Virus genome (UHGV): UHGV-0210596
Source of the DNA: a virus
Strand: one strand, 5' to 3'
Length of the DNA stretch: 64,000 nucleotides
The position numbers and the translations under genes are program-made. Under the pieces are notes generated by a model. That model did no database searches. It had not been told where the DNA came from and worked only from the letters and a program-made list of their open reading frames with translations. Shown here piece after piece: positions 7,294 through 42,798 of the stretch (its first letter is position 1; each line of letters opens with the position of its first letter).

Positions 7294-7533
7294 TCATCTC
7301 ATATCTTTTAAGAATTTATCAGTCACTTCTTTGCCGAGTTCGTAGACGTGGATGCAGACTTCGGTAATGCCGGCATCGGCAGCGTCTTGTTTGATTAGCG
7401 GTACAAGTATATGTACCTTGCCGACCGTGTCTTTCGCCTCGTAGAACGGTGTTGTTTCATCAACCACCCAATAAGAGTGATCTTTTAGTCCGTAACAATC
7501 GTAATAATTAGCAATAACTATGTATCGTTCCAT
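7294..7533 (-). CDS. Hypothetical protein, paralog of 32107..32331
   Basis: Shared YIV..NYYD..G, FYEAKD..GKV, VYELG..VTDKF. Confidence 0.75.
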   Translation of the reverse strand: MERYIVIANYYDCYGLKDHSYWVVDETTPFYEAKDTVGKVHILVPLIKQDAADAGITEVCIHVYELGKEVTDKFLKDMR

Positions 7534-7642
7534 ATTTTTGGTTTTTTTATCTTCATACTATCGCTATTATTTGCGGTTTGTCTGTGTTGACTGTAACTTT
7601 CGCTTGCGGTTTGCTTGGCATCCAATCTTCGATTATACGCCA

Positions 7643-7900
7643 TTACCGACCGCGTTGCGCCATAATCCATTTTTGTTTTAATTCGTTAAGACGGCCTTGC
7701 AGGCATTTGACGTATTCGGGACGGCCAATATATCCGTTAGAATCGCTATTTCCGCCCGTGTTGTCATAGTCGTATTCATCCTCATCTTCCCATTGAAGTT
7801 CCTTTATGACCTTTATGGCTTTTTCTATGGTTCTATAACGATTTTCTGTTGCGCAGTATTTTTGGTGGCGTAGGTAGTCGTCTATGTTAAACCTGAGCAT
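7643..7900 (-). CDS. Hypothetical protein
   Basis: ORF in operon. Confidence 0.55.
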   Translation of the reverse strand: MLRFNIDDYLRHQKYCATENRYRTIEKAIKVIKELQWEDEDEYDYDNTGGNSDSNGYIGRPEYVKCLQGRLNELKQKWIMAQRGR

Positions 7901-8510: not shown

Positions 8511-8593
8511 TGGAAGCCGCAACAGGATACGACCCTGCATTTCCCCGAAAAACAGTCCTAAGAAACGGGGCGTCTTGCTTAGACGATGCGGCC
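8511..8593 (-). ncRNA. tRNA-like element A: cloverleaf with 18-nt anticodon loop and encoded CCA
   Basis: Acceptor GGCCGCA/TGCGGCT+T+CCA; D arm GTCT-AAGCA-AGAC; stem CCCCG/CGGGG; T arm GCAGG-GTCGTAT-CCTGT. Confidence 0.7.
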
Positions 8594-8693
8594 ATAGCGG
8601 TTTGGGCGCTTACACCCTCACGGGTCGGGCGCTTGGCATTGCCGCCGTGCCGGTCTTTTTGTCCAAATAGAACACTATCTGCGATTGCTTAGT

Positions 8694-8751
8694 TGTGCCG
8701 CAGATAGGTCGCGAGCCTATCGGACGACCGCTGTCGCTTCGTCACTGCGGC
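8694..8751 (-). ncRNA. tRNA-like element B (acceptor stem plus T arm)
   Basis: GCCGCAG/CTGCGGC+ACA; T arm ATAGG-CTCGCGA-CCTAT. Confidence 0.55.
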
Positions 8752-8841
8752 GTGAAGTCAGCCTATTCTCGCGAACCAGCCGACGGAATAATAAAATCCA
8801 AACAATTCAGTTCACTATGAAGAAATCGTACTTACTTTGTA

Positions 8842-9963
8842 TTAGTCAACACGCATCGGCATAACCAATACGCGGTATATTGTTTTATCGGCCTTTAAGG
8901 CAGGGACTAACAATATCGGGTGTGATGCGTCATTGGCACGCAATACTAATTCGCCTGCAAATGCGCTTAATGCGCAAGCAAGGTTTTTGTATGCGAAGTC
9001 AATGTCAAGTTCGTGGTTTGTCGTGCCGTATATCAGTTCGGAGGCATCTTGCGATGTGTCCTTATCCCTCGTAGAGACGTGTATTTGGCCGTTAGTGTCA
9101 ACGGATAAGTGAATACTCGGGATGCGGTCGTTGGCCAAAATAGCCACGCGCGAAAGCGTTGTGCGCAGTGTTGCGGCATCAACTCGCGCTTCGGTTTTGG
9201 TTTCGTTGGGGAATACGCGATTGGCATCGGGGTAATTTCCGGCAATAAGCGCGGAGGTAAATTCGACCGTTGCCGTTTTGAGTGTGACGGACTTTTCGGC
9301 TATTGTTATGGATGCTTCGCCGTTTTCGCAGTTGCATATATCCGCCATCATCTGTGCGTATCTTGTCGGGATTACGACAGCGGCGGTTTTAATGCTCGTA
9401 AAATCGGTAATGGATAATTGCGCCAATAAGCGTGTATCCGTAGCCGTGAATGTCAGAGACGAGTCGCCGAAGGCTATTTGCACGCCTTGTAGTTGAGCGT
9501 GGTAATCGGCTTCCGTAGCGGCTGCAAAGGCGGTTGCCTTGATGCCGCGAGCGATGTCTTCGGTGAGGACTTTGTATGTCGTCCCTGCGGCGTTGACCGC
9601 TTGCGGATAGATTGCTGCGTCATAAGCGTTTAGTCCATACTTGCCGTTGGGTGTGGTTATTTCCACCATATTTGTATCGTCATACGTTATCGTCATTGGC
9701 ATTTCGCCGATAGCGCGGACGAGTGCGCCGAGTTTTTTCGGGTCAACACATATCTTGCCGTTTCCGTCAACTTCTGTCGGATGCAGAGTTGCGGTTATAC
9801 GCGCTTCGGCATTAGAAGCCGTAAGGCGCATTGTTTGGTTGTCATCAACCTCCAATAGCAAGGAGGCTTGTGCAGTCAGTGTTTTGTTGAGGCTGCTGCT
9901 TGCGATTTTATCGAGCGTTTGGATTACGCCTAAATCTTTTGCGTTGATTGTGAATTTGAACAT
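8842..9963 (-). CDS. dnaN: DNA polymerase III beta sliding clamp homolog
   Basis: 373 aa; ATDTR.L, LIAGNYPD..RVFP, C-terminal VLVMPMR. Confidence 0.9.
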   Translation of the reverse strand: MFKFTINAKDLGVIQTLDKIASSSLNKTLTAQASLLLEVDDNQTMRLTASNAEARITATLHPTEVDGNGKICVDPKKLGALVRAIGEMPMTITYDDTNMVEITTPNGKYGLNAYDAAIYPQAVNAAGTTYKVLTEDIARGIKATAFAAATEADYHAQLQGVQIAFGDSSLTFTATDTRLLAQLSITDFTSIKTAAVVIPTRYAQMMADICNCENGEASITIAEKSVTLKTATVEFTSALIAGNYPDANRVFPNETKTEARVDAATLRTTLSRVAILANDRIPSIHLSVDTNGQIHVSTRDKDTSQDASELIYGTTNHELDIDFAYKNLACALSAFAGELVLRANDASHPILLVPALKADKTIYRVLVMPMRVD

Positions 9964-10080
9964 AAGATGTTTTATTTGCGCGGAAAATCCACGTTACTTA
10001 TAATGCTTTGTCTGTCAGCGAGTTTTTGTTCGCGGTTTGAGAGAAGAATGGGAGCGATGGGAATAATGCAGGTCTTATTC

Positions 10081-10110
10081 ACTTAGCTTACCCACTTAGC
10101 TTACCCACTT
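10081..10110 (-). repeat. 13-bp tandem repeat GGTAAGCTAAGTG
   Basis: acttagcttaccc x2 plus partial; near-identical to the 33288..33326 unit. Confidence 0.8.
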
Positions 10111-10159
10111 GGAATATTTTACTTTAATCGCCAAAGCTAAAATAAACGACTGCGTTATT

Positions 10160-10501
10160 TTACTTTCCGTTAGCTTCGTCAGCCACAGCGGCGATTTCGG
10201 CGCGTGCTTCGGCCTTGCAGGCTTCGGCAAAGTCGTTGTACTCGGCAAATTCTTCGGGCTTTGTGTCGCGCTGGCGAAGGATGCCCAGCTCGTCCGCAAC
10301 GGTGTATCGCTCGCGGATAAGACGCTCGACCGCAGCCTTGTAGGCTGACTCGTCAACGGTCACGGGCATTTCGTCCACTTCCTCGTAGTCGTCCGCGTTG
10401 TATGTCATTGCGGCTATGGCTGTGGCCGTCAAGCCGTCCGAGATGCGGCGCACGTACTTGCCGCTATCGCTCGTAATTCGATGGTTGTTGTATTGTATCA
10501 T
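10160..10501 (-). CDS. Tail fibre assembly chaperone-like protein
   Basis: LIRERY...DEL.I.RQ...EF.EY..F.E.CK motif; directly downstream of fibre gene. Confidence 0.65.
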   Translation of the reverse strand: MIQYNNHRITSDSGKYVRRISDGLTATAIAAMTYNADDYEEVDEMPVTVDESAYKAAVERLIRERYTVADELGILRQRDTKPEEFAEYNDFAEACKAEARAEIAAVADEANGK

Positions 10502-10513
10502 AATTGTTTGTGT

Positions 10514-12544
10514 TTATGCGCTTACAAATGTTACATATTTCGTCTCGGCTAATGTCAGAATATCTTCGGGCAGAACCGCAAACACGTCTGCATGCAGCGT
10601 CACGCTTATAGGCTTGGCAGCTGTAGCTCGGCTCTTTTCCACAAGATAGCGCAGGCAATCGACATTGATGTTGTTTGCCTGCGCAAATGTCTTGGTCAGC
10701 GATACGTACAAGTCCGAAATCCACAGGTATTTCAGCTTTGATTTGAACGGCGAAAAGATGCTGTTAAAAGCTACATCGCCCTGCTTTTCCACCTGCACCG
10801 CGCCGATGACCTCCTGTAAGCTGCTGGCATTATAGAAGCTAAACACACCTCTAATCCAGCACGCCCCAGTAGGTCGTTGTCCACGCAGACCTGCTGCAAC
10901 ACGAATTACCTGCACATCGTAGGAAGAAAAAACTTGCGCAGTATTTATTCCTCGGCCATTCTGACTGCCGCCGACATACGCTGCATAATCGCACATCATA
11001 TTGGTGCGTATCGCGTTAGTCTCGTATAGCGGCCTTGGATAAGGTCCGCAAGTTCGCATGTCATATATCTGCCTTGCTTCGGCATAGGATATTCCAGTAA
11101 TGCCGTTGATAAAGAAGCCCGGTGTTTCATGCCATTCAGGATAATATCCACCGTAGTCAAGCTGGAAATGCGAGCTGTCTTTAACATAACAATTACCGAG
11201 GTCATCACATGTGCCATACCAAGAGCCTTGTACGCCGCTGTCCGATATATATCCTCCTCTGCCGCCACCCATCATCGGACGGTAAATTGCGTCACGCCAC
11301 ATCTTAATAAACAGTGCCTTGCCTGCATCCGTTACGCATACGAGGTCTGCGCCGTATGTGTCTTTGCCATTGCCATTGTACGCGCTGATATATGCCTCGG
11401 TGTCGTATTTGTAGGTGTCTGCGCCCCACCGCCATGTGCGGTCAGTCCTCGCGGTGGTCGGCTTATTGTTGGTGATGATGTTGTATTCAGCATCTCCGTC
11501 AAAGCGCTCGGCGTAGGCTTTTTGCTCCTCCCAAAAGGCGTAAAAGCGCTTCTTCTCGCGCACGTAGATGATGTCCGCAACGCCGTCAGTGCGCGTCTTA
11601 GGCGTCAGCGGCAGTGTCGCCGCCGTGTAATCTGTGGGCAGGCTCTGCCGTATGCCGTGGAACACGTGTACCAGCATCGCGCCCACGTCCTCCTTATCAA
11701 GACGCAGCACCTTGTCGGCGTGCAGCCCATCGGCGTAAGCAGCGCCGCTGACAGTGAGATTGCCCACAATGCCGCTGTCGCCGTTGGCCATAATGCCCCA
11801 GCCTTTGGTAACGAGTTGGCCGTCAACTTCAAGGACGCCGCCGCTGCCCGTGCCGGGAACGATGGTGGTGGTCTTGACCGAGCCAAGTTCGGCTTCGCCC
11901 TGCACGTGGATGCCACCTCCAGCAACCGTTATGTCGGAGTTGTTCACCGTCAGGCCGTTGCCAACGGTTACGATATTGGCATTAAGCGTACCAGAGACGA
12001 CTAAGTCGCCGTTTATGGTGCCGCCCGTGTTGTCGGTGATTGTTCCCGTATCGCCTTTGTCGCCTTTATCGCCCTTGTCTCCCTTGACGCCTTGTATGCC
12101 TTGCAAGCCCTGCTCGCCACGGTCGCCCTTATCTCCCTTATCACCTTTTAGCGTAGGCAGGATAAATTCGGCTTCGATAGTGGGATATTCGATGGGGCAT
12201 TTGCCGTCAACGAGCTTGACGTCCAAACGGCGCTCGGCAACATCCTTGCGCGTGCCATCGGGGTATGACGCATCAGGGACATAAATCGTAAACGTCAGAA
12301 TTAGACGCCCGGGCTGCAATCCGTGGTTATCGAATTTGCAGACGATAACATCGTCATCATCGACATAGCAATTGGCCGTGCATTGATTTTCGGTACGGCC
12401 AAAGGTGTAGTTTACGCCGTTTGCGCCGCTTGTGATTACGCCCTCGAAGTCGTAGTTTTTCAGTGCGAGCGGCTTTTCGAGCATATCTTTGACGGATATG
12501 CGCAACGTAAAGTCGCTTCTGTAATCTATTTCCGTGATTTTCAT
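10514..12544 (-). CDS. Tail fibre / receptor-binding protein with collagen repeats
   Basis: N-terminal SDF...FDNHGL.PG.L...PD..YPDG attachment-like domain, (GDK)n collagen triplets, beta-rich repeats. Confidence 0.75.
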   Translation of the reverse strand: MKITEIDYRSDFTLRISVKDMLEKPLALKNYDFEGVITSGANGVNYTFGRTENQCTANCYVDDDDVIVCKFDNHGLQPGRLILTFTIYVPDASYPDGTRKDVAERRLDVKLVDGKCPIEYPTIEAEFILPTLKGDKGDKGDRGEQGLQGIQGVKGDKGDKGDKGDTGTITDNTGGTINGDLVVSGTLNANIVTVGNGLTVNNSDITVAGGGIHVQGEAELGSVKTTTIVPGTGSGGVLEVDGQLVTKGWGIMANGDSGIVGNLTVSGAAYADGLHADKVLRLDKEDVGAMLVHVFHGIRQSLPTDYTAATLPLTPKTRTDGVADIIYVREKKRFYAFWEEQKAYAERFDGDAEYNIITNNKPTTARTDRTWRWGADTYKYDTEAYISAYNGNGKDTYGADLVCVTDAGKALFIKMWRDAIYRPMMGGGRGGYISDSGVQGSWYGTCDDLGNCYVKDSSHFQLDYGGYYPEWHETPGFFINGITGISYAEARQIYDMRTCGPYPRPLYETNAIRTNMMCDYAAYVGGSQNGRGINTAQVFSSYDVQVIRVAAGLRGQRPTGACWIRGVFSFYNASSLQEVIGAVQVEKQGDVAFNSIFSPFKSKLKYLWISDLYVSLTKTFAQANNINVDCLRYLVEKSRATAAKPISVTLHADVFAVLPEDILTLAETKYVTFVSA

Positions 12545-12865
12545 TCGTGGTATTGTACTTAGGTGCTGCAATTTACGAATATTTTTCGAGATACGCGGCA
12601 AGACGTAAACGAATTTAATTGAGCTTAGCCCTTTCTGCCTTTATCATCTCGGCTGCCGCTATGATAGTGGTGGCAAACAGCTCATTTTCCTTTGCTACCA
12701 TAGAGATGGCTGCGATAATATACATATGATCTCCATCTATAGCTGTTTTAACAACGTTTTTATCTTGGGAGATAACAATAGATAATATCGCGGAATTTTC
12801 ACCCAAAACTTCTTCTTTGTTTAACCGTGTAATCCAGCGCTTCTCTTAATTCTTCGTAATTCATA

Positions 12866-13471
12866 TTAATTAAACCATTTAAGTGTTGTTTCTCCTTTAT
12901 AGCCAACCTCCCAGACAAACCACGCATATGCGGATGCACTGCTTGTGTACTTGCCGAAGTCTGCGTTTTTGGCGCATTGGATGCGCGATGACGATACCCA
13001 TACACGTATCGGCGGAAAGATGCGAAATAATTCCTTACGTCTTTTGCCTTCTAAGAAGTTGAGACGCAAGAACATGCAGACCTTATTGCCGGGCGCGGTA
13101 TGCGTAAGCGCGTGCATAACAAATTGCTCAGCGTAGCGGTATGGCGGATTGGTGATTATCGTGCCGTCAAAACAGAAGTTGTAGCCGCGAAACATCAGAA
13201 AGTCTTCGACTTGCACGTTTTCGGCACGCTTGACAATGTCGGTGGCTATCACCTTGTAGCCTGCGTTCTCGAACACGTCAGCGAGATGCCTTGCTCCTGC
13301 GGCACATTCCCATATCGGCTTATTCTTTGGTATATCCTCGACTTGCAGAAGTAGCTCCGCAGCTATCGGGTCGGTCGCATAATAATCTTGCGGCTGTCGT
13401 TGCTCGTCCGTGTGGTTTGATGCCCCGAGCTGTGCAAATACCGATTTAGAATTGCCCTTCCAGTCTTTCAT
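12866..13471 (-). CDS. Amino (N6A/N4C) DNA methyltransferase
   Basis: DYYATDP, WECAAG, IITNPPY, LNFLEG. Confidence 0.9.
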   Translation of the reverse strand: MKDWKGNSKSVFAQLGASNHTDEQRQPQDYYATDPIAAELLLQVEDIPKNKPIWECAAGARHLADVFENAGYKVIATDIVKRAENVQVEDFLMFRGYNFCFDGTIITNPPYRYAEQFVMHALTHTAPGNKVCMFLRLNFLEGKRRKELFRIFPPIRVWVSSSRIQCAKNADFGKYTSSASAYAWFVWEVGYKGETTLKWFN

Positions 13472-13833
13472 TAGAACAGTGTTTCGAGTGTAAATTCGAT
13501 GCGCGGATTGTCCTTGTCTATCAACTTCCGCGCGTGTATTTCGGCGCAATCTCTGTCGTTGCGAACAACCTTACACGCTTGTAGGCAATCGAGCGTTACT
13601 TTCAGCGCGTTGTCCAAGTCGGGGCGGTCGGACGCAAAATACACGTCAATATCCAGCTTGAAGCGTTGGTCTATCATCAGACCGCGCAAGCCGCACTGCA
13701 TAAAAAAGCTCTCCTCGTAGGCTTTGGTCTGTTTGGTCTTACACAGACTTCCGTGGCCGTGTAGCGTGATTACGCGATACGAATTGGACTTGCTTGGGGC
13801 TTGTCCCAGAATCGTTTGTTTGTCGTAAATCAT
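13471..13833 (-). CDS. rusA: RusA-like Holliday junction resolvase
   Basis: PSKSN, RPDLDN..K..LD.L, ND, NPRIE. Confidence 0.9.
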   Translation of the reverse strand: MIYDKQTILGQAPSKSNSYRVITLHGHGSLCKTKQTKAYEESFFMQCGLRGLMIDQRFKLDIDVYFASDRPDLDNALKVTLDCLQACKVVRNDRDCAEIHARKLIDKDNPRIEFTLETLF

Positions 13834-14292
13834 TCGGCGTAATGTGCTTAAAAAATGTGCTTAAAAACGGAAAAAAGGGCAAAGGCCGTCTAAGCCCATG
13901 CCCCTTTGCGTGTGGGTGGTTGGAACGCGTCAGTCCGCTTTTATTGTTGTCAAGTAAGCGGCAGCGCTTATCGCGGTTTCTTGCATGTCGATGATGTCGC
14001 CCAGCGTGTCGCGGTGTTTGCGAGCCACAGCGATAAGGCGCATTGCCTGTATGGACAGAGCCATTGCGAGCCTCTTTGCCTCGGCGGCTTGTTTCTTCTC
14101 GTTCATCGCAGTGCCTCCTCTCTATTTAGGAGTTGTTCTACAAGGTCGGCACACGAAAGCAGCGTCAGAAAGATTGCTTGTGTCTGTCTGTTTTCCGGCA
14201 TCGCGGACGTGAGGCCGAGGCATTGTTCAATGTCCTCGTACAATAGAAAAAGATCTGTTTGGTTCATTGAGTTTGTTATTTGACTATGAATA

Positions 14293-14537
14293 GCTTTCGG
14301 GTTGGCACGCAAAAAAAACGTGCCGCTACCCTTTGTCAAATGCCAAACTCGTGGAAAAGCACGGCCATGCCATTACAGCAATAGCCAAGGGGCGGCACGC
14401 TTTTGCGTGTATCCTGAATATGTGGGGATTAGCATAAAAAAATGCCTTCCCGGCGTTTGTGCGTGGAAAAGCAGTGCTAATCCACGAATTTGTTTTTTGA
14501 CGCCGCAAAGTTAAGGCATCCCACCCAATCATCCAAA
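14293..14537 (-). promoter_or_regulatory. Promoter and c4/CI-RNA-like structured leader
   Basis: TTTG 14534-37, N20, TAACTTTG 14506-13; repeated CGTGGAAAAGCA; leader complementary to downstream TCCACGAGTTTG/TTTGAC. Confidence 0.6.
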
Positions 14538-14546
14538 CATTCGCCG

Positions 14547-14858
14547 TTAATCATTGTTAATTATCTCTTTCCTAAATTCAACCCATGCGAATGTTTCCAA
14601 TATGTGCCACTCGGCATTAGCCTGAAAACGCTCTTTGGCTATCCCCGTAGCCTTGCATAATGCGTTAAGGCGTTCCTCTGTTACTTCCAGCGGTTTCAGC
14701 TCGCTTATCGGCACGTTGAACATCTTGACGCGGACGCCGTTGTCTGCGTAAGACAGATAAACGGCGTTCGGCATTATGCACTCAATACGGCATACTCGGT
14801 TGGGATACCGTTTAAGCGCAACGTGTGAGCCGATGCGCAGGTCTCTAATGTCAATCAT
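14547..14858 (-). CDS. Hypothetical protein
   Basis: IRDLRIG..V...LKPL..TEE.L pattern. Confidence 0.7.
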   Translation of the reverse strand: MIDIRDLRIGSHVALKRYPNRVCRIECIMPNAVYLSYADNGVRVKMFNVPISELKPLEVTEERLNALCKATGIAKERFQANAEWHILETFAWVEFRKEIINND

Positions 14859-15025
14859 TTGCTTACTTTTAACAATCGTTTAAGTCGCCGTAAATCCTCG
14901 CCTGCAAGCCGTTTGGCGTTGACGGCTTTGAGGTCGTCTCGCGGCACGGTGCAGCGCTCGGCCAGTATACCGTAGTGCCGCAGGATGTTGGCAAGGACGT
15001 ATTCAGATACAGGTATTTTCATTGG

Positions 15026-15871
15026 TTATACAATAGCATCCTTTGCTTTACGGACGTTAAAACCATTGTCATGCAACGCGTGGATGAAGCGCCGTCCGCG
15101 TTCGTTCCAAACGGTATACATTGACGACCCGATACTTCCGTCAGACCGCGTATAGGTCTGTGTGCGTGTCGCGGATAAATTCCAGCTTGCATAAGGTTGT
15201 TTCAGCATCCACATTCCCGATTGACGGAAGATTACGCCGGCTTGTTTAAGTTGTTTGTTGAGGCTGTGCGCGTCCATTCCCAATTCCTTTGCAATTTGGG
15301 TTGTGGTCATAGTGTTTACACTTTGCAGCGTGGTGTCGTAGTAGTTCACCTTTGGTGCTTGCTCTAAGATGGTTTGTTCGTTACGCGTGTTGGTGTTTTC
15401 GAGTTGTTGCAGTCTTGACTATTGTCGTGCAAGGGTGGCTTGGGCTATTTGCAGCGCCTTTGCCATTATCACCTCGGGCGAGTCATCGTCCTTAGCGGCG
15501 ATATATCCACCGGTCATTCGGATTTCGCGTAGAATCTTCTTGACGCCTTTCTTAAACAGTTTGGCTGTTGGTTTGCGGCTCTGCATAAGAACTTCGTACA
15601 AACCATTCTCTGTCAGCATCCATACGTTTCGATTTTGACCTGACACAAACATTGTTTGGGTCAGCTTTTCGTCATCATCCACCGTCTGCATCATCATAGA
15701 CACATCAGAGTGCCCAATAAAAGTTGCAACGTCTTTCGCCTTGAACAATGATTCTTCGGGTGTTCCGTAGATAATGAACGACTGCCCTACCACTTCCACT
15801 TCTTTAAGTGGCTGCACCGCCTTTGTTTCGTTTGTTTCCGGCATAAATAAATTGTCGATATTGTTTATCAT
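15026..15871 (-). pseudogene. BRO-N / KilAC antirepressor split by one in-frame TAG
   Basis: BRO-N (LTENGLYEVLMQSRKP) and KilAC (TTTQIAKELG) ORFs share a frame; TAG at 15419-21 is the only stop between them. Confidence 0.8.
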
Positions 15872-15928
15872 TTTGTTTTATGTTTATGGGGGTAGTTTGA
15901 AAATCATTGCTTGTCAACTCGGCGATTT

Positions 15929-16792
15929 TCATAGAAGCCTCAATGCAAAGCCGTCTCCACCGAACAATTTGTGGAGAAAGGCCAAACCTTTTTGAGTACA
16001 GTATGTGGTTATAGGGATGAACATCCGTCCGTCCGAACGTTGTATGGGTGCGCCCTCGACCACGGTAAAATATCCGGCATTTACGTATTTCTGTGCAGGT
16101 TCGTTGCTATGACGGAAAAGGATGCCGTGTTCGCGCAGTTTCTTGAACAATGTATTGCGGCCAAAATCGAGTTTGAGAATTTTAGCGGCTTGCGACATCG
16201 ATACGAGCGTGTCTGCGTTAAACGCGGTGTCGGCAAAATCTGCTTTGGGTTTGAGTTTGGCGATGGTGCGCTCCTGCTGCCGGTTGGAGGTTTCAAGTTT
16301 TTCTATTTGCCTCGCTTGGTCTGCCGCAAGTTGCAACGCCTCGGCAAACGATGTCGGGACTGCAAAGCCACCGTTTAGTTTTTCTTTTTCGAGTTCCTCC
16401 CAGCGATCTATGATTTTGGCGCGTAGGATTACATCATACCCGCTTGCCAGTAAGAAACACGCCTTTTTGTTTAAGTTGTACATGGAACGTGCTTCTCCTT
16501 TTGCATCGACGTAAGATGTTTCTGTGATTTGGTACTGGTTCGTGCCATTCCCAAAAGCAAAGTCAAGAATGGTTTTTTGAGAGCGTTCTGACAAATACTT
16601 ATATTGCGTTCTGTCTCCTCGATGATACTCTCCGTCAACCAATCCACATGTGGATTGGTTGGATTTGTTAATGGATTCCACCATCTTACGGATGTCTCGC
16701 ATAACATGTGCGTGTTGTTTGCCTGTAATCTCGGCGATTTGGAGACTGCTCATAGTTTGGGCGACCCCTGCAAGCGATTTCTCGTTTAGCAT
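15929..16792 (-). CDS. Rha-family / KilAC antirepressor
   Basis: MSSLQIAEITGKQHAHVMRDIR, SYVD, PTSFAEALQLAA, GRNTLFKKLR. Confidence 0.9.
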   Translation of the reverse strand: MLNEKSLAGVAQTMSSLQIAEITGKQHAHVMRDIRKMVESINKSNQSTCGLVDGEYHRGDRTQYKYLSERSQKTILDFAFGNGTNQYQITETSYVDAKGEARSMYNLNKKACFLLASGYDVILRAKIIDRWEELEKEKLNGGFAVPTSFAEALQLAADQARQIEKLETSNRQQERTIAKLKPKADFADTAFNADTLVSMSQAAKILKLDFGRNTLFKKLREHGILFRHSNEPAQKYVNAGYFTVVEGAPIQRSDGRMFIPITTYCTQKGLAFLHKLFGGDGFALRLL

Positions 16793-16865
16793 AATTTGAT
16801 TATGTGTTTGATTATTATTGGCTAAAAAAAGCGGCCAACGCAAATGCGTCAGTCGCTTAGAGAAT

Positions 16866-16894
16866 AAAAAAAGGGCAGGAATAATATCCTGCCC
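16866..16894 (-). terminator. Intrinsic terminator closing the repeat-containing transcript
   Basis: GGGCAGGA-TATTAT-TCCTGCCC then T7 on minus strand. Confidence 0.8.
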
Positions 16895-16932
16895 TCGGCG
16901 AAAGGAAAATTAAATCCTACTTTGCTTATCGC

Positions 16933-16964
16933 GTTTCAATTCACGCAACCCCGAAGGGCGCGAC
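16933..16964 (-). CRISPR. Solitary type I-C CRISPR repeat
   Basis: GTCGCGCCCTTCGGGGTTGCGTGAATTGAAAC; 32 nt, I-C layout GTCGC..hairpin..GCGTG.ATTGAAAC. Confidence 0.85.
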
Positions 16965-16978
16965 ACTTCCGCCTTTTT

Positions 16979-16997
16979 ATCTACAATAGTAGAAATT
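16979..16997 (-). CRISPR. Solitary type V-A (Cas12a) repeat handle
   Basis: AATTTCTACTATTGTAGAT, matching the 19-nt mature Cas12a handle pattern AATTTCTAC-N4-GTAGAT. Confidence 0.88.
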
Positions 16998-17041
16998 TTC
17001 TTGGCGACAAAAGACTCGCGTCAATTGCCGTTTGGATGCCG

Positions 17042-17073
17042 CAAATTTAATGGTTTGCATCTTGCCAAACAAA
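17042..17073 (-). promoter_or_regulatory. Bacteroidetes-type promoter driving the repeat transcript
   Basis: TTTG 17070-73, N20, TAAATTTG 17042-49. Confidence 0.75.
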
Positions 17074-17106
17074 TAATGGCGTATTTTTTAAGAAATATTA
17101 ACTTTA

Positions 17107-17206
17107 TGTGGGACAGGCGCGAGTTGAACGCGCTTACGGCTGTATTCAGCAACACCACGACAGATAATGGCGTCTCGTAGGCTTCCGTGTCTACGACTTC
17201 TGTCTC
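17107..17206 (-). ncRNA. tRNA-like element I
   Basis: GAGACAG/CTGTCCC+ACA; T arm GCGCG-TTCAACT-CGCGC; non-canonical middle. Confidence 0.6.
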
Positions 17207-17313
17207 ATTAAAAAAGCAACCTATTCTCACGAACCGGGCACCCTAAGAAAACTAAAATAAACCTAAATTGTTTTCATCAACATAATCAACTTCAGTATAT
17301 AAACATCATGCGT

Positions 17314-17390
17314 AGTGGACGCAAGCGGAGTCGAACCGCATATACACCCTTGGAAACGCCGACAAAACAAGGGGTATCACCGTGGCGTCC
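17314..17390 (-). ncRNA. tRNA-like element C
   Basis: GGACGC/GCGTCC+A; T arm GCGG-TTCGACT-CCGC; CCCTTG/CAAGGG stem with long loop; no D arm. Confidence 0.6.
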
Positions 17391-17467
17391 ATATAAAACC
17401 GCGCTATCTTCACAGACGACGCGGAAAAAGTGTCTAAAAAACTATTCCAGTCCACATGAGTAGTCAT

Positions 17468-17530
17468 TGGCGATGCGGCAGGACTCGAACCTGTCCGCTG
17501 ATAAGCGGCATCCCAAGCGAACACCGCACC
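17468..17530 (-). ncRNA. tRNA-like element D with encoded CCA
   Basis: GGTGCGG/CCGCATC+G+CCA; T arm CAGG-TTCGAGT-CCTG. Confidence 0.6.
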
Positions 17531-17547
17531 GCTTGTAGAATCCTCGC

Positions 17548-17718
17548 TTATTTGGCAGCTTCGACGGATACCTTGCGGAACTCTTTCAGTGCTTTCTCGA
17601 TTTCGAGGGAGGCCTTGCGAGCGCGTACGCCGGCAGCTTTGTTCCCACCTTGTGCCTTTGCGGCGTTGGTGGAAAAGTCCTCGAACAATGCCGAGATTTT
17701 TACAATCAATTCTTTCAT
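17548..17718 (-). CDS. Histone H1-like (Hc1-type) small basic protein, 56 aa (not in ORF track)
   Basis: MKELIVKISALFEDFSTNAAKAQGGNKAAGVRARKASLEIEKALKEFRKVSVEAAK. Confidence 0.85.
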   Translation of the reverse strand: MKELIVKISALFEDFSTNAAKAQGGNKAAGVRARKASLEIEKALKEFRKVSVEAAK

Positions 17719-17748
17719 AAACTTAAAACTAAATTAAACAATGGTAAT

Positions 17749-17853
17749 TGGAAGGCGTGTCGGGGTTTAATCCCGAATCTGCACACAGCTTATTCAGTGG
17801 CCTAATCTGTGAGTTGACTATCTTGTGTGCCGTCTTGTTTAGACCACACGCCC
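17749..17853 (-). ncRNA. tRNA-like element E: cloverleaf with about 36-nt insert at the anticodon loop and encoded CCA
   Basis: GGGCGTG/CACGCCT+T+CCA; D arm GTCT-AAACA-AGAC as in element A; GCACACA/TGTGTGC stem; T arm TCGGG-ATTAAAC-CCCGA. Confidence 0.7.
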
Positions 17854-17920
17854 ATTCATAGCATTTAGGCGTCTCGAGCGGAATGCGCTTTTCGCGCTCT
17901 CTTGCGCAGGGATTTCAACC

Positions 17921-18838
17921 TTAGTTTATTTCTTCGTATTGCACTTCGCCGTCCTCATCGAAGTCGGCGTTTGTGCGTTTGCTCGTTTGCTTCTGACGTG
18001 CGACCCAGTCTTGCTCGGCCTTTTCGTCATAATCGAACACGGCCTCGATAACCTTAATGCGGTCATCGCTGATAGCGCCTTTGGGCAGGGATTTGAAGCC
18101 GCGCCTTAAAATCGTTTTCCGGCACATAGCCAGATAGTCACTATCCCACGGCGAGGACTTCTTTCCGGCAACGGACGGCGACCGCATCTTGATTTGGTCG
18201 ATTTCCGCTTTGGTCATATTGTCGAACAGCTTCGTGTCGTCGGCAAGTGTAGCTATCCAATAGCCGCCGAGCAACGTCTTTTCGGAGCGTTCGCCCCACG
18301 GATTGGGCTTGTGAATAAGGCTTTCTTGTGTTCCGTGCGTCATCGAGAACTCATCGCCCTCGAATACGAGAAACGCCTCTATCTTCTTGATGTGGCCGTT
18401 GTTGCTAAGCAAATCAACCATACCCATATAGGAGGGCATAAAGGTTACGCGACCCTTAAACGGCACAAGATAGCCTTGTTTGAGCGTCGGATTAAGTGAT
18501 AGTCCGCTAAGCGCAACGTTTTTCAGCGCGTTTACGAAGTCTTGCGGATACTTTGCGGCGCAGTCTATCAGATAGTTGTTGGCGACCATAGCCTGCGCGG
18601 CGTAGGTAATCTCGCGTTGCATTGTGCGGTCTGCCTCCTTAGCGTCCGCAAACGCGGCGCGGAAACTTTCCCATGGCTGGGCGAACAGATTACGTATGCC
18701 CTGCAATTCGGCAGGTAGGCGCTTAATTGCTTCTGCCGTGCGCTCGGGTGAGGCGTCTTTCTTGACGGCCACCGCTTGTGTTTGCGGCTGTTCTTGCGGC
18801 TGCTCTGCCGCTTGTGTGGTTGTTTCTTCTTCTGTCAT
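17921..18838 (-). CDS. recT: RecT-family ssDNA annealing protein
   Basis: GLSLNP....YLVPF....SYMG, V.EGDEF, SPW..DY..M..KT. Confidence 0.9.
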   Translation of the reverse strand: MTEEETTTQAAEQPQEQPQTQAVAVKKDASPERTAEAIKRLPAELQGIRNLFAQPWESFRAAFADAKEADRTMQREITYAAQAMVANNYLIDCAAKYPQDFVNALKNVALSGLSLNPTLKQGYLVPFKGRVTFMPSYMGMVDLLSNNGHIKKIEAFLVFEGDEFSMTHGTQESLIHKPNPWGERSEKTLLGGYWIATLADDTKLFDNMTKAEIDQIKMRSPSVAGKKSSPWDSDYLAMCRKTILRRGFKSLPKGAISDDRIKVIEAVFDYDEKAEQDWVARQKQTSKRTNADFDEDGEVQYEEIN

Positions 18839-19782
18839 ATCTCATCTATATACTTTCGTGTAACGTAGGATGGCGGCTGGATGTTCAGCACGGGAGACTC
18901 GCCATCCTTTCTCTCGATAAAGACTTCGGCGGTAGGATAAACACCGCTCTTGGTGCATTGTATGTGCAGGTCGCGAAGTTTTGCGAACTCGTAAGCGCCC
19001 GGCCCTAATACCGTATATTCAGCCTCGGGGACATACCTGTAAGCCCAATCGTCCATACAGACAATTATGCTGTCGTGCGGCGCTTGCTTACTTACAAGCA
19101 CTAAGTAAAACGACTTCCACTCGCCCGTAATCTCGTGAACAAGCCACTGATACATTGCGGCGCTTATGTGGTAGCCGTATTTAAGCATCACGCGGTTGAT
19201 GCTGTCTTCATCGAAGATGTCGATGTTTGTGGTTTTCCAATCCACAATTTTTTTGCGTGTTTCGAGGTCGGGGCGGCACTTGAATTTGCAACCGTCGTAC
19301 TCAACGAAGTGGCTTACTTCGGATTTGCCCCATTTGAGTAGCTTTCTGACGGCTTTTCCCGTTTCGGTTTGCTCGCTTAGCAACGCTAAGGCCATATCGC
19401 GGATAAGTTGCAAGTCTGCGCTCGATGCAATCTGCCTATCGATGTTGTTAAGCAAGAATGTATCGTATGCGTCCGCATAACGCTTTGTGGCCGCGCCAAA
19501 GGGCTGTCCCGTCTTTTCGTTTACGGGCGGTTCAAAGACTGCGATGTTAGCGCACCACGCGTCTAAGTCCTGACCCCCTGCGAGACTTGCAAGGCAGTCG
19601 TGGAACAGCGAACCGAATATCAGCGCCGCATTACTCTCGTCATCGGGATGCTCTCGATGCCATTTTGCGTAAGCCGGGGACTTAGCGTAGTCTTTTAATT
19701 GACTACTGCTAAGATAGTCGCAATACGGCTCGCCACGGTGGTAACTGCCATTCGGCAAGCCGTAAATCGTGCTCTCTATCAT
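18835..19782 (-). CDS. PD-(D/E)XK exonuclease (RecE/ExoVIII-like)
   Basis: LSSSQLK, GSLFH, KCRPD, VDWKTT, YGYH.SAAMY. Confidence 0.88.
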   Translation of the reverse strand: MIESTIYGLPNGSYHRGEPYCDYLSSSQLKDYAKSPAYAKWHREHPDDESNAALIFGSLFHDCLASLAGGQDLDAWCANIAVFEPPVNEKTGQPFGAATKRYADAYDTFLLNNIDRQIASSADLQLIRDMALALLSEQTETGKAVRKLLKWGKSEVSHFVEYDGCKFKCRPDLETRKKIVDWKTTNIDIFDEDSINRVMLKYGYHISAAMYQWLVHEITGEWKSFYLVLVSKQAPHDSIIVCMDDWAYRYVPEAEYTVLGPGAYEFAKLRDLHIQCTKSGVYPTAEVFIERKDGESPVLNIQPPSYVTRKYIDEI

Positions 19783-20048
19783 AGGTCGTCCATTTGCTCG
19801 CGCAAGCCGTCAAGACATTGCTCAACGGCGTTAACGATTTCTTCGAAAGACCCGTAAAGCTCGCTGTCGTATTTGACAACGATTTTTTCGTTACCGTCGC
19901 CATCGTCCATGCGCACTGTGTATGTTATGCTGTCGGGATAAAGGCATATCCCGTCGATTTTACCGCGATGACCGCGTAGTTTGCGTAGTTTTCTGTCCTC
20001 TAACCAATAAACCGTTTGGCCGAGGTCAAATTTTGTTTCTACTTTCAT
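19779..20048 (-). CDS. Hypothetical protein
   Basis: MKVETKFDLGQTVY start pattern. Confidence 0.7.
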   Translation of the reverse strand: MKVETKFDLGQTVYWLEDRKLRKLRGHRGKIDGICLYPDSITYTVRMDDGDGNEKIVVKYDSELYGSFEEIVNAVEQCLDGLREQMDDL

Positions 20049-20049
20049 A

Positions 20050-20400
20050 TTATTGATTATTAATTGGTTGGTATGTTGATTGTCGTCTTTTGCTATATCC
20101 CATTTCGTGTAAATTTCGATAGAGCGCGCGGCGGCTCACTCTCAAGAAGCGTTCTATAAACGCGACGCTTACATGCTTGTAGTTTGCCGCAAGCCAATCT
20201 TTTTCCTGCTGTGTGAACTTCCGTTGCAGGTGGACATTGCGGCGTATCTTTCTGGACAACTGCACCCCTGCCAATTTCGCTCGGTAGCGAAGTTGCCACG
20301 AGTGTTCCAAGCCGAGTGCTATGCGCATTTCACGCGAGGACTTGGTGGCAACGTTCTCACGGATATACGCGAGTTCGGCTTCGGTTATTGGTCTCCACAT
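20050..20400 (-). CDS. Tandem HTH protein
   Basis: Two T..E..(Y/W)..N repeats; basic. Confidence 0.65.
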   Translation of the reverse strand: MWRPITEAELAYIRENVATKSSREMRIALGLEHSWQLRYRAKLAGVQLSRKIRRNVHLQRKFTQQEKDWLAANYKHVSVAFIERFLRVSRRALYRNLHEMGYSKRRQSTYQPINNQ

Positions 20401-20492
20401 AATTATCTTAAAAAACGGCGAACGGGCGGACTAACTAACCCTATAACAACGTCCGCCCATAAGCCGGAAAAACAAAACTATTTATGAATTGC

Positions 20493-20568
20493 TGTGGAAG
20501 ACTCGGGAGTCGAACCCGAGAGAGCGCAAAGCCGCAGTCGCACACTATCAAGTTGCCGTCAGTCTTGC
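20493..20568 (-). ncRNA. tRNA-like element F
   Basis: GCAAGAC/GTCTTCC+ACA; T arm TCGGG-TTCGACT-CCCGA. Confidence 0.55.
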
Positions 20569-20705
20569 ACGGGCATCCGTTATCCGTACTTTAATCTTCC
20601 GTAAGAACTTGACTATCTTCACAGACGGTCAAGCCGATATGAGTCTTCTTCTCTCGTTAATAAAAACTAATGGCCTTTGATTGCCTTTATAATTATAAAT
20701 ACGCT

Positions 20706-20792
20706 TGTGGGCATTATCGGAGTTGAACCGATAACAGCGCTGTTCTACGTTATAGCGGACTGTTCTCCGCAGCGCTGTGGTCTGCCATGCCC
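20706..20792 (-). ncRNA. tRNA-like element G
   Basis: GGGCAT/ATGCCC+ACA; T arm ATCGG-TTCAACT-CCGAT; ACAGCGCTG/CAGCGCTGT stem. Confidence 0.6.
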
Positions 20793-20874
20793 GATAAACG
20801 GTGCTACTCTCACGAGCAACACCGGTCAAACCAATAATTTGGGATCAATCACACATTTTATGTAGAAATTAGCA

Positions 20875-21084
20875 TTACATATCATCTTCTTTGAGGTCGG
20901 GGAAGATTATCTCTCCTAAGTCTTTGCTTTTGCCGCAGCATTTAGCTATAATCCACGGCGCGGCTATCAGTACAAGACCACCGACGATAAACCGATAGTC
21001 TTGTCTTTCCCAGCCGTAGGCGAACGACATAAAAAAGCCGCACACGGATGTCAGTATCGCGGCGGTCGCAATTAACGTTTTCAT
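20875..21084 (-). CDS. Small two-TM membrane protein
   Basis: Two hydrophobic segments. Confidence 0.65.
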   Translation of the reverse strand: MKTLIATAAILTSVCGFFMSFAYGWERQDYRFIVGGLVLIAAPWIIAKCCGKSKDLGEIIFPDLKEDDM

Positions 21085-21107
21085 AATTAATTGATTATTA
21101 GTTGTTT

Positions 21108-21222
21108 TGTCCCTCGTTGCGGAGTCGAACCGCGTAGCGTGGCCATGGGTTAGAAAGCACCGCCATTCGGCGGCATCGCAATATCCTATGCGCGGCTATC
21201 CTATCGCGCATTCTTTCGAGGG
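21108..21222 (-). ncRNA. tRNA-like element H
   Basis: CCCTCG/CGAGGG+ACA; T arm GCGG-TTCGACT-CCGC; long middle. Confidence 0.5.
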
Positions 21223-21904
21223 TGGTCGGGGTTGGTCGGCCTTAGCGCCGCAGTAGGTTCTGATGGGGTCTCAACGCCTGCGCGAACTGCGGCTATATAA
21301 TAGAAACTAATATAGAGTAGTTTCCTATCTTTGTCAATACCTCGGCGGCAAGGGCTGTACCTCGCCATTGACGTCTTTTTATGCCGCCGTGTCATCGCGG
21401 AGACGCTACTCTCCGCACATTTGCCCCGGATGCTGTCGGCGGACATGTCAACGCCTATTGCTCTGTTCCGGTATCTTTCGCCTCTCCCTATGTCGTGCCG
21501 CTCGGTATTGTAGCGGCTTGGCTTGTCGGTTCACTTATAAGCCGTCATTTGGCTTCAAGGAGCGCCGACCTCGGCGGAGCTTTCGGGTGCTACCCGTACT
21601 GTATGCTCATCAGCAGGCACTATCGCAGTCTCTGTATCTCGCTATTCGCGAGTCCCGCGTGGCAACCGTAAGGCCGTTGCCTCTCCTCGGACTTAGTGTT
21701 CGCGCCAGAAGCGCTTGACCTCAGCCCCGGACACTTTTAGTCGGCGGCAGCGTTGAGCTGCGTCCATTCCGCCGTCCTATCGTCCGCGTTTTAATGCTCT
21801 GCGCACGGTCTGTTGGCTTACGCCTAAGACCTTAGCGGCTTGTAAAACCGTCATAAGCGCATTGTCGCGGATGTCAGGCTGATAAATCGTCATAACTTAA
21901 TAAC

Positions 21905-22293: not shown

Positions 22294-22848
22294 ATGGACA
22301 CCACTAAGAGCCGCTTACAACACTTTGCTGCAACTCTCGGACTATCAATGCTGCAACTGGAAAAAGAGTGTGGCATAAAATATGGTGTGGCAAGTCGCAT
22401 TACGGAAAAAAGCTATCCTAAGACCTTTGAGAAAATCCGTCAGCGCTTCCCGATTCTCAATATCGAGTGGTTGAAAACGGGCGAGGGCGATATGCTTCTG
22501 CCTGAACATCCTGCAATCACCGATAGCAACGAGATTAACATCCGTGGTGGCGTTGCCCATTCGGCCGTTAACAACGGAAGCGGCTCGGCGTCTTATACCG
22601 CTAAAAGCAAAAGCGACCAAAACCTAATGCGAACACTTATCCGTAAGGTCGAGGCGTTATCAGTGGAGATAAAAGAAAAAGACGAACAGATTTCTCGCCT
22701 TTTAGCCATCATTGAGGGATTTGCCGGTATTGCAGGACGCTTCAAGCCTCGCGCCGAAGAAGAGCGACAAAAGAAAGAGGAACTAAAAGAAGCGATGAGG
22801 CGCAGGCGAGCGGAAGCAAAGGCTGCGAAAAAAGACGAAGCGAAATAA
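22294..22848 (+). CDS. CI-like HTH repressor
   Basis: RL..F...GLS...EKECG, FP.LN.EWL.TGEGDM; C-terminal coiled coil EKDEQI.RLL. Confidence 0.85.
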   Translation: MDTTKSRLQHFAATLGLSMLQLEKECGIKYGVASRITEKSYPKTFEKIRQRFPILNIEWLKTGEGDMLLPEHPAITDSNEINIRGGVAHSAVNNGSGSASYTAKSKSDQNLMRTLIRKVEALSVEIKEKDEQISRLLAIIEGFAGIAGRFKPRAEEERQKKEELKEAMRRRRAEAKAAKKDEAK

Positions 22849-29958: not shown

Positions 29959-30049
29959 AGTAGGATATGTTTATGTTACACAACCGGGCGGATAATCCGC
30001 CCACGCACCCGGCCTAATGCCTGTTTATAGTCGCCGGGCCGACCTTTGT

Positions 30050-37498: not shown

Positions 37499-37824
37499 GA
37501 TTGAGTACTACGTCAGATTGCGTGCGCGTTGGCGTGGTATCTTTGTGTGTCGCAGCTATATGTATTGCCACGGGTATATCAAGGCAACCAAGCGCGACAT
37601 CTTCGGGACGTATTATATTGTCAAAAACGCCAAAGATGAACGCGTTGACGTAGTAAGACCGTGTCGAGTGCTCGGCAGAGTTTGACACACAGACAGATAT
37701 GATAAACAGAAAAGCCACCTAACCTCACAGTCGGGTGGCTTCGCCATTTCAAAAGACTTATCCCAAAATGATTTAGAACATAAATCAACAATAATTAAAC
37801 CAAAAGCACAAGAAAAAACATTCG

Positions 37825-42355: not shown

Positions 42356-42372
42356 ACAACCGTGGTTTTGTG

Positions 42373-42442
42373 CAAAGGTACGAATTTTTATTAAAGTTTT
42401 ACTCAAAATATTTGTTGTAATCAATTAGGTGTATTATATTTG
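42373..42442. promoter_or_regulatory. Divergent promoters for packaging and head-tail operons
   Basis: Minus TACCTTTG 42373-80; plus TTTG 42411-14, N20, TATATTTG 42435-42. Confidence 0.7.
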
Positions 42443-42706: not shown

Positions 42707-42779
42707 TGCGGTGTGGAGCAGTTGGTAGCTCGGCGGGTTCATTCCCCGCAGGTCGCAGGTTCGAGTCCTGCCGCCGCCA
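42707..42779 (+). tRNA. tRNA-Met(CAT), initiator-like
   Basis: Full cloverleaf, CAT anticodon, GGG/CCC anticodon stem, unpaired 1:72, TTCGAGT T loop. Confidence 0.9.
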
Positions 42780-42798
42780 CAGGTTTTAATAACTCCAA

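Follow-up and report, generated by a model that had tools for sequence, protein, structure and literature searches.

Why should a temperate phage keep a series of transfer RNA (tRNA)-like elements with no canonical anticodon loop among its early genes? This question is raised by the virus genome UHGV-0210596, of which a stretch of 64,000 nucleotides (nt), hereafter called the window, was analyzed. The window comprises most of the genome of a LoVEphage-like temperate phage, in which a repressor-like gene at 22294 on the plus strand opposes a long early region on the minus strand, and nine such elements (E1 to E9, Table 1) are located in this region. The elements are characterized in sequence by a conserved helix, an invariant C at position 74 (C74), AT-rich trailers, a shared leader hairpin and the lack of a canonical anticodon loop. 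Here, we propose that they are, on balance probably, tRNA-derived cassettes kept as substrates for host ribonuclease (RNase) P and 3' trimming, which would set message ends and release small RNAs.

The original prediction had placed nine elements on the minus strand outside probable genes, and all of them were found at or near those positions. As it had also stated, each element keeps an acceptor stem that stacks on a T arm whose loop has 7 nt. The two stems comprise 7 and 5 base pairs (bp), respectively; 10-12 of the 12 stem positions are paired in all nine, and the same holds for all 24 element copies in the window and its relatives. In the chance test, a 12.9-kilobase (kb) region and 200 dinucleotide shuffles of it were searched for a T arm and then for an acceptor strand pairing upstream. 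Six of the nine elements passed a strict filter (shuffles: mean 0.035, maximum 1), and eight passed a relaxed filter, the rule of which was chosen after the elements had been seen (shuffles: mean 0.08, maximum 2). Nothing on the opposite strand of the region passed these filters, and the rest of the window yielded only the real tRNA-Met under the strict filter, plus one additional hairpin under the relaxed one. E8 (8694-8751) fails both filters through its deviant T loop; its stems are 12/12 paired in the window and in one relative. Pseudogene calls or no calls had been expected from tRNA finders, and indeed none of the nine was called by ARAGORN at default settings or by Rfam (RF00005); at a 90% threshold, ARAGORN called one of the nine, E9, as a tRNA-Glu. 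Folding energy had no discriminating power (z from -0.7 to -5.4). Element-specific pattern scans returned 15 and 4 stretches, almost all by chance; 1 and 2 of these, respectively, were known relatives, and 1 was a phage tRNA-Glu.

Most of the predicted coordinates stood, but the element given as 20493-20568 (E3) starts at 20600, with 106 nt to the discriminator, and the one given as 17468-17530 (E5) starts at 17531. Because the latter start puts G-1 opposite C73, the apparent CCA end of E5 reads as C73-C74-A75, so that only two of the three CCA ends claimed, those of the elements starting at 17853 (E4) and 8593 (E9), occupy positions 74-76; the encoded CCA of E4 is not retained in relatives. 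The G-1:C73 pair of E5, which we take to be the histidine identity pair, is found in all three lineages compared. Likewise, the letters of the five predicted ACA ends are present, but they represent the discriminator A73 followed by C74-A75, like those of the phage's own tRNA-Met. Measured to the discriminator, the elements are 56-113 nt long.

The D and anticodon regions had been described as missing or altered. In constrained folds and alignments, a canonical anticodon loop (5-bp stem, 7-nt loop, U33) was found in 0/9 elements, so this part of the description holds for all of them, but many retain a D-like arm and a helix resembling an anticodon stem, often with covariation, and most are therefore more than a bare top half. 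The middle region is different in each element: E4 and E9 form a full cloverleaf with an enlarged anticodon loop, E2, E6 and E8 have one main hairpin, and E1, E3 and E7 have several arms. The T-loop consensus is matched by six of the nine. If the elements were decoding tRNAs masked by introns or unusual anticodon arms, the annotation of LoVEphage would be informative, in which an element of 162 nt (L003 19715-19880), greatly enlarged in its anticodon region, is entered as a joined tRNA, 'tRNA-Undet', and which encodes RtcB; the call of E9 at the lowered threshold would also agree with this idea. However, E4 has a base other than U at position 33 in 3/3 lineages, the loop of E9 is not conserved in 2/2 (both judged by eye), and E5 and E8 are too short for an anticodon arm. 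Integration (attachment) sites, for their part, should have a core matching the 3' half of a host tRNA, and no such match was present among the tRNAs compared. We therefore consider hidden decoding tRNAs or integration sites extremely improbable.

Evidence for selection comes from covariation. Homologues were obtained from L005 (with L021 and L023), which has eight of the nine elements, and from L006 (with L022), which has seven; L020 is near-identical to the window and was uncounted. The acceptor and T stems were expected to covary across homologues and do so over three lineages. Among 108 stem positions, 83 are invariant, 8 have double-sided changes with all copies paired, 8 have one-sided changes and 9 have an unpaired copy. 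When the relatives are compared with the window, 167 of 180 stem positions are paired and 11 changes are double-sided; the top half of E3 has three double-sided changes. When the 43 substitutions involved were placed at random 5000 times, 142.7 +/- 3.5 positions were paired, and double-sided changes had a mean of 1.2 and a maximum of 6. In addition, C74 is kept in 24/24 copies, while in 15 comparisons of a relative with the window, position 73 differs in 5 and position 75 likewise in 5. Covariation and C74 conservation together back the proposal that the elements reflect selection rather than decay. Identity is 85-90% in the stems, 66-70% in the distal middle (gapped alignment) and 48-66% at the fourfold sites of RecT, exonuclease and Hc1. 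A promoter stretch nearby is 99% identical in L006, and phage mosaicism of this kind weakens the fourfold-site yardstick, whereas the compensation test is unaffected.

The same comparisons bear on the possibility that the elements are decaying tRNA pseudogenes, in which the top half persists for one reason only, namely that downstream genes would suffer from a remnant left uncut or misfolded, whereas clean deletion is harmless. The drift of the middles to near the level of fourfold sites, the eroded T loops of E4, E8 and E9, the clean losses in L005, L060 and L061, and the canonical tRNAs at syntenic places would all be expected in that case. However, it leaves the 11 double-sided compensations and the invariant C74 unexplained, and the form recurs in many unrelated phages. 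None of 178 tRNAs compared is close to any element (13-20 identical among the best 25 3' positions), and no parent tRNA could be assigned among them except, weakly, tRNA-Glu for E9; the elements would thus be old yet intact. For these reasons, decay appears quite unlikely.

All nine elements likely derive from tRNA genes and no longer decode. Canonical tRNAs are present in the same early interval of relatives (five in L012, two in L010 and one each in L013, L017 and L030), and in distant relatives canonical tRNAs stand side by side with anticodon-expanded forms. A conserved two-hairpin motif at the RecT stop, which in relatives lies at distances of up to 1.3 kb downstream from RecT, allows one site to be followed among these phages. 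After the motif, there is a canonical tRNA-Leu in L004, an E4-type element in the window, L001, L002, L020 and L021, and an 11-12 bp T-loop minihelix (31 nt) followed by G-C-A in L008, L027 and L028. Similar hairpins with deviant loops follow it in L007, L030, L033 and L034, and other hairpins in L013 and L025; in several relatives, an AT-rich stretch, then a GYGA hairpin and then a start codon come next. Such elements also occur in isolated phages, namely three in BS-TP2 and one each in PV4-TP1 and LoVEphage, and the distance from their end to a start codon is at most about 30 nt (3/3 in BS-TP2). The PV4-TP1 copy (L247 12698-12864) of the LoVEphage element has a double-sided change in the acceptor stem. 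As a separate observation, L006 has an extra open reading frame (ORF) with short repeats at 7310-7700, and because it sits directly behind E1, it suggests that the 3' ends of elements can be insertion points.

The 3' trailers can be compared with those of the probable host. The host is likely a Bacteroidales bacterium, because the RecT of the window is similar to that of Dulem virus 40 (58% identity) and LoVEphage (47%), and close copies of this RecT occur in genomes titled Bacteroidales or Porphyromonadaceae. A RecT profile search in 401 genomes chosen by order and 401 by family matched only 1 and 2 genomes, respectively, which were already known. In G003, a Bacteroidales genome that need not be that of the host, 30 of 45 tRNA matches were examined; C74 is present in all 29 canonical tRNAs read, CCA is encoded in 4/29, and the GYGA leader hairpin precedes none. 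Canonical phage tRNAs have C74 in 66/69 cases and an encoded CCA in 1. Judged from these genes, C74 without a complete CCA is the normal trailer of Bacteroidales tRNA genes, and the trailers of the elements are host-like. Since the discriminator varies and C74 is fixed, the trailers point to 3'-end maturation rather than charging by one synthetase. E5, with its G-1:C73 pair, is an exception.

On the 5' side, a GYGA loop on a 4-bp stem, in most cases with a mismatched A beneath the stem, lies from a few to about 12 nt before six of the nine elements (E2, E3, E6, E7, E8 and E9). Outside the early region, the window has one similar hairpin at 37728 and three weaker ones elsewhere. In other phages, the hairpin precedes canonical and deviant tRNAs alike. 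A scan of the viral collection for the hairpin followed by a T arm 55-85 nt away, in which 1000 stretches were estimated and no control pattern was used, gave at least 120 loci with 142 distinct T-arm elements, 69 canonical and 73 other by a crude filter that puts a few real tRNAs and chance hairpins into the wrong class. Between E8 and E9, the leader hairpin of E9 lies within a structured stretch at 8600-8655 (minus strand) that is 83% identical in L005 and has covarying hairpins; a theta-ribozyme reading of this stretch, compared by eye with the layout of that ribozyme, was dropped.

The leader hairpins invite another explanation, in which the elements are never cut and act as stable folds that, in combination with the GYGA hairpin, cause transcription to pause or terminate or obstruct exonucleases. 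Several of the hairpins have T runs and look like terminators, and in many relatives the same hairpin is located 13-21 nt before start codons. Such a function would need neither the 7+5 bp geometry nor the T-loop consensus nor C74, and the hairpin also precedes canonical tRNAs without a T run. When we asked whether it resembles a terminator only if no tRNA follows, mean T counts were 3.7 (54 hairpins) versus 4.5 (42), in classes that are noisy. Its 11-mer exceeds the reversed control in just one of five Bacteroidales genomes, and the hairpin was therefore dropped as a general host terminator. We consider an uncut fold very unlikely.

Processing by host enzymes would account for the retained half. 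The acceptor stem and T arm are the parts read by RNase P, RNase Z and the CCA-adding enzyme (PMC1920247, PMC11143913), and when five Bacteroidales genomes were searched, RNase P RNA was found in four and an RNase Z-like gene in all five (above the family cut-off in two). In the proposed sequence of events, the elements would first be transcribed together with the early genes, and a cut by RNase P at position 1 would define where the upstream RNA ends; the Hc1 messenger RNA (mRNA), for instance, would end 17 nt past its stop codon. The 3' side would then be shortened by RNase Z or exonucleases, so that the message of the next gene would begin some 25-35 nt ahead of its start codon (E1, E4 and E9), and CCA would be completed on the released RNA. 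In this way, neighboring early messages would likely obtain separate stability and translation. Tandem copies may be remnants of an ancestral tRNA array that are still cleavable, or products themselves.

The original prediction that the elements are processing signals remains the best fit and is strengthened, as far as sequence comparison goes, by the host-type trailer and by the bare minihelices that relatives have at the corresponding site. Its further claim that they cut the early transcript into units would fit only some of them. E1, E4 and E9, the trailers of which are 70-82% A+T, have 26, 34 and 26 nt, respectively, between the discriminator and the ATG of a 69-aa ORF, Hc1 and a 110-aa ORF, and E5 starts 17 nt after the Hc1 stop, so that E4 and E5 flank this gene. 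However, the elements starting at 20792/20600, at 17531/17390/17206 and at 8751/8593 are in tandem with no conserved gene between them, and 'one cut per gene' is therefore too simple.

Several observations weigh against processing as the function. In six of the nine, no gene follows immediately, and the majority of junctions between early genes lack an element. The elements are also dispensable, as L005 has no E7 and only a short stub is left of E8 and E9 in L060 and L061, apparently after a deletion between the acceptor sequences that these two have in common. Direct homologues exist in only three independent lineages, and the kinship of the copies limits the counts. The site after RecT is matched among the phages by motif and position, so that descent along the series is only presumed. 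As for structure, the T loops of E4, E8 and E9 are off consensus, the T arm of E5 is missing from the lowest-energy fold (4.7 kcal/mol above the minimum), and the T arms of E1 and E5 are weakly predicted, with scores as low as those of 10 of the 19 host tRNAs compared. In addition, the covarying D-like arms and middle helices exceed the needs of a minimal cut mark.

This last point would be understandable if the released RNAs were themselves the product, that is, CCA-tailed tRNA mimics acting in trans that occupy host enzymes or defense toxins binding tRNA at its acceptor end or elbow. An L shape would then be preserved by the conserved D-like arms and middle helices, and tandem arrays without genes between them, nine different acceptor sequences, and gain and loss among close relatives would also be understandable. 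The stable T4 RNA rnaC, which lies in a tRNA cluster, has no known role and ends in a perfect T arm, would be a parallel case. Nevertheless, the bare 31-nt minihelices occupy the equivalent site in relatives, discriminators differ among homologues so that no single synthetase identity is kept, and PADLOC matched 0/15 neighboring proteins. The original prediction had also offered decoys for tRNA-targeting nucleases. Among these, anticodon nucleases such as PrrC fit poorly, since PrrC reads mainly the anticodon stem-loop (PMC3014915), and this part is absent from the elements. We consider a product acting in trans unlikely. Similarly doubtful is a broader proposal, in which temperate Bacteroidales phages would have turned tRNA genes into a large uncatalogued family of non-decoding RNAs, ranging from cloverleaf to 12-bp minihelix, that combine early-message segmentation with a role as excised, CCA-tailed trans decoys protecting translation from acceptor-end toxins of the host's defense.

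Table 1. Positions of the nine elements, their leader hairpins and associated features in the window
Feature	Position	Strand	Positions 73-76	Description
E1	21107..21222	-	ACAA	covers positions 1-76; top half of 6+6 bp; GGA loop on D-like arm; middle variable
E2	20705..20792	-	ACAA	D arm reduced to 2 bp; long covarying helix replaces anticodon arm
E3 (corrected 5' end)	20492..20600	-	ACAG	6-bp D-like arm, two more short arms
E4	17749..17853	-	TCCA	full cloverleaf outline; D arm of 4 bp; covarying anticodon-like stem of 7 bp; loop enlarged to about 35-40 nt
E5	17467..17531	-	CCAA	shrunken cloverleaf; 4-nt loop replaces anticodon loop
E6	17313..17390	-	ACTA	no D stem; single long hairpin in middle
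E7	17106..17206	-	ACAT	three internal arms; absent in lineage L005
E8	8693..8751	-	ACAA	smallest; a single hairpin separates acceptor and T arm; T loop deviant
E9	8511..8593	-	TCCA	tRNA-Glu-like cloverleaf; 18-nt loop replaces anticodon loop; encoded CCA
Leader hairpin of E2	20799..20824	-		GYGA
Leader hairpin of E3	20607..20634	-		GYGA
Leader hairpin of E6	17399..17424	-		GYGA
Leader hairpin of E7	17215..17242	-		GYGA, T run
Leader hairpin of E8	8758..8784	-		GCGA
Leader hairpin of E9	8606..8632	-		GYGA; within longer conserved structured stretch
Two-hairpin motif at RecT stop	17890..17921	-		13 sequences aligned, two double-sided changes; no Rfam match
Hc1 gene	17548..17718	-		histone H1-like, PF07432; between E4 and E5
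tRNA-Met(CAT)	42707-42780	+		initiator-like; sole canonical tRNA of window (ARAGORN, Rfam)

The early region encodes an exonuclease VIII-like protein, RecT, Hc1, three antirepressor-domain proteins, RusA, a methyltransferase, a beta clamp, a dUTPase and a replication initiator. An 81-aa ORF at 21201-21446, which overlaps the 5' end of E1, was rejected as a gene because a 2-nt indel shifts its frame in both relatives. Next to E1, a non-coding island at 21225-21720 (minus strand) separates that element from an excisionase-like gene; it is 95% and 86% identical in two lineages, has no Rfam match and a loosely similar stretch in L007, and is probably a larger structured RNA. A probable internal promoter near 17040, judged by its consensus, would also divide the early region. 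The antirepressor leader at 16845-16980 (minus strand) has a conserved motif and a terminator-like hairpin, is 79% kept in L005, and may be an attenuator. Behind the probable promoter, and ahead of a Rha-KilAC antirepressor, a single 19-nt sequence at 16979-16997 (minus strand) equals the 3' end of a Prevotella Cas12a repeat arm as given in its description (10.1101/2023.07.03.547467). It is present in L006 and not in L005, near-identical copies occur in L143 and L183, and the 20 nt downstream of it have no good match in the window (best 16/20). This sequence is a candidate RNA anti-CRISPR or regulatory CRISPR RNA, or it could be an operator palindrome.

Elsewhere in the window, a collagen-repeat tail-fibre-like gene (10160-12601, minus strand) lies within the early region, on the strand opposite to the main tail genes. 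The terminase large subunit gene (39584-42424, minus strand) has a LAGLIDADG/homing-endonuclease insert, probably an intein, and together with the following gene is oriented opposite to the head and tail genes. The tRNA-Met lies between the divergent terminase and head genes, and its T-arm region resembles that of E5. A Pistol ribozyme is located at 29979-30044 (minus strand, 59.9 bits).

How do these elements relate to known systems? In the literature searched, which excluded supplements that may hold structured-RNA catalogues, we found no account of the Bacteroidales elements or the GYGA hairpin. Canonical tRNA, transfer-messenger RNA (tmRNA) and Rfam C4 RNA identities were rejected, because there were no default calls, no canonical anticodon loop and no Rfam match. 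The tRNA-like domain of tmRNA does have an acceptor stem and a T arm without an anticodon, but neither ARAGORN nor Rfam called a tmRNA here, and G3-U70 is present in the window only in E5, in one of three E5 copies. With the canonical tRNA cassettes of Bacteroidales phages, the elements share the leader hairpin, the C74 trailer and the genomic interval; they differ from them in having no 7-nt anticodon loop. C4 RNA is linked to an antirepressor, and three of our elements are likewise upstream of an antirepressor gene. Host RNase P processes the phage C4 (P1/P7) and M3 RNAs (PMC11143913). Unlike these RNAs, the elements have no Rfam match at E <= 1, and they carry true T arms and tRNA trailers.

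The nearest phage precedent is T4 rnaC. Three reports describe rnaC and rnaD (species 1 and 2 RNAs) as small RNAs of the tRNA region, the role of which is not known (PMC12685909, PMC9697503, PMC3014915). Like the elements, rnaC has a perfect T arm at its end and receives no anticodon call. In T4, however, two RNAs of the late class stand beside eight real tRNAs in a lytic phage, whereas here nine elements are among early genes with no real tRNA adjacent. A blastn search of 16800-21750, a query that excludes E8 and E9, against 50,697 phage records matched only coding genes of Dulem virus 40 and did not retrieve rnaC or rnaD. If our interpretation is true, it bears on the role of rnaC and on why phages carry tRNAs, and it accounts for 'undetermined' tRNA calls in LoVEphage-like genomes. 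Precise predictions follow from the invariant C74 and from the natural gradation between tRNA-Leu and minihelix, and they can be tested in practice, since the isolated phages BS-TP2 and PV4-TP1 carry such elements.

In their way of working, the phage elements would be most like the t-elements of plant mitochondria. These are non-canonical, non-decoding cloverleaves with a conserved T arm at mRNA boundaries, proposed as substrates of RNase P and RNase Z, with mapped RNA ends and C or CC added to the 3' ends (PMC1920247). The phage elements share with them a predicted tRNA-like fold, a conserved T arm and the absence of decoding capacity. They differ in being phage-borne and often tandem and in having a leader hairpin and the Bacteroidales C74 trailer. 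If this analogy is correct, phages use the tRNA shape beyond decoding, host tRNA-processing enzymes set the ends of phage messages, and a message-end logic mapped so far in organelles would also operate in phages.

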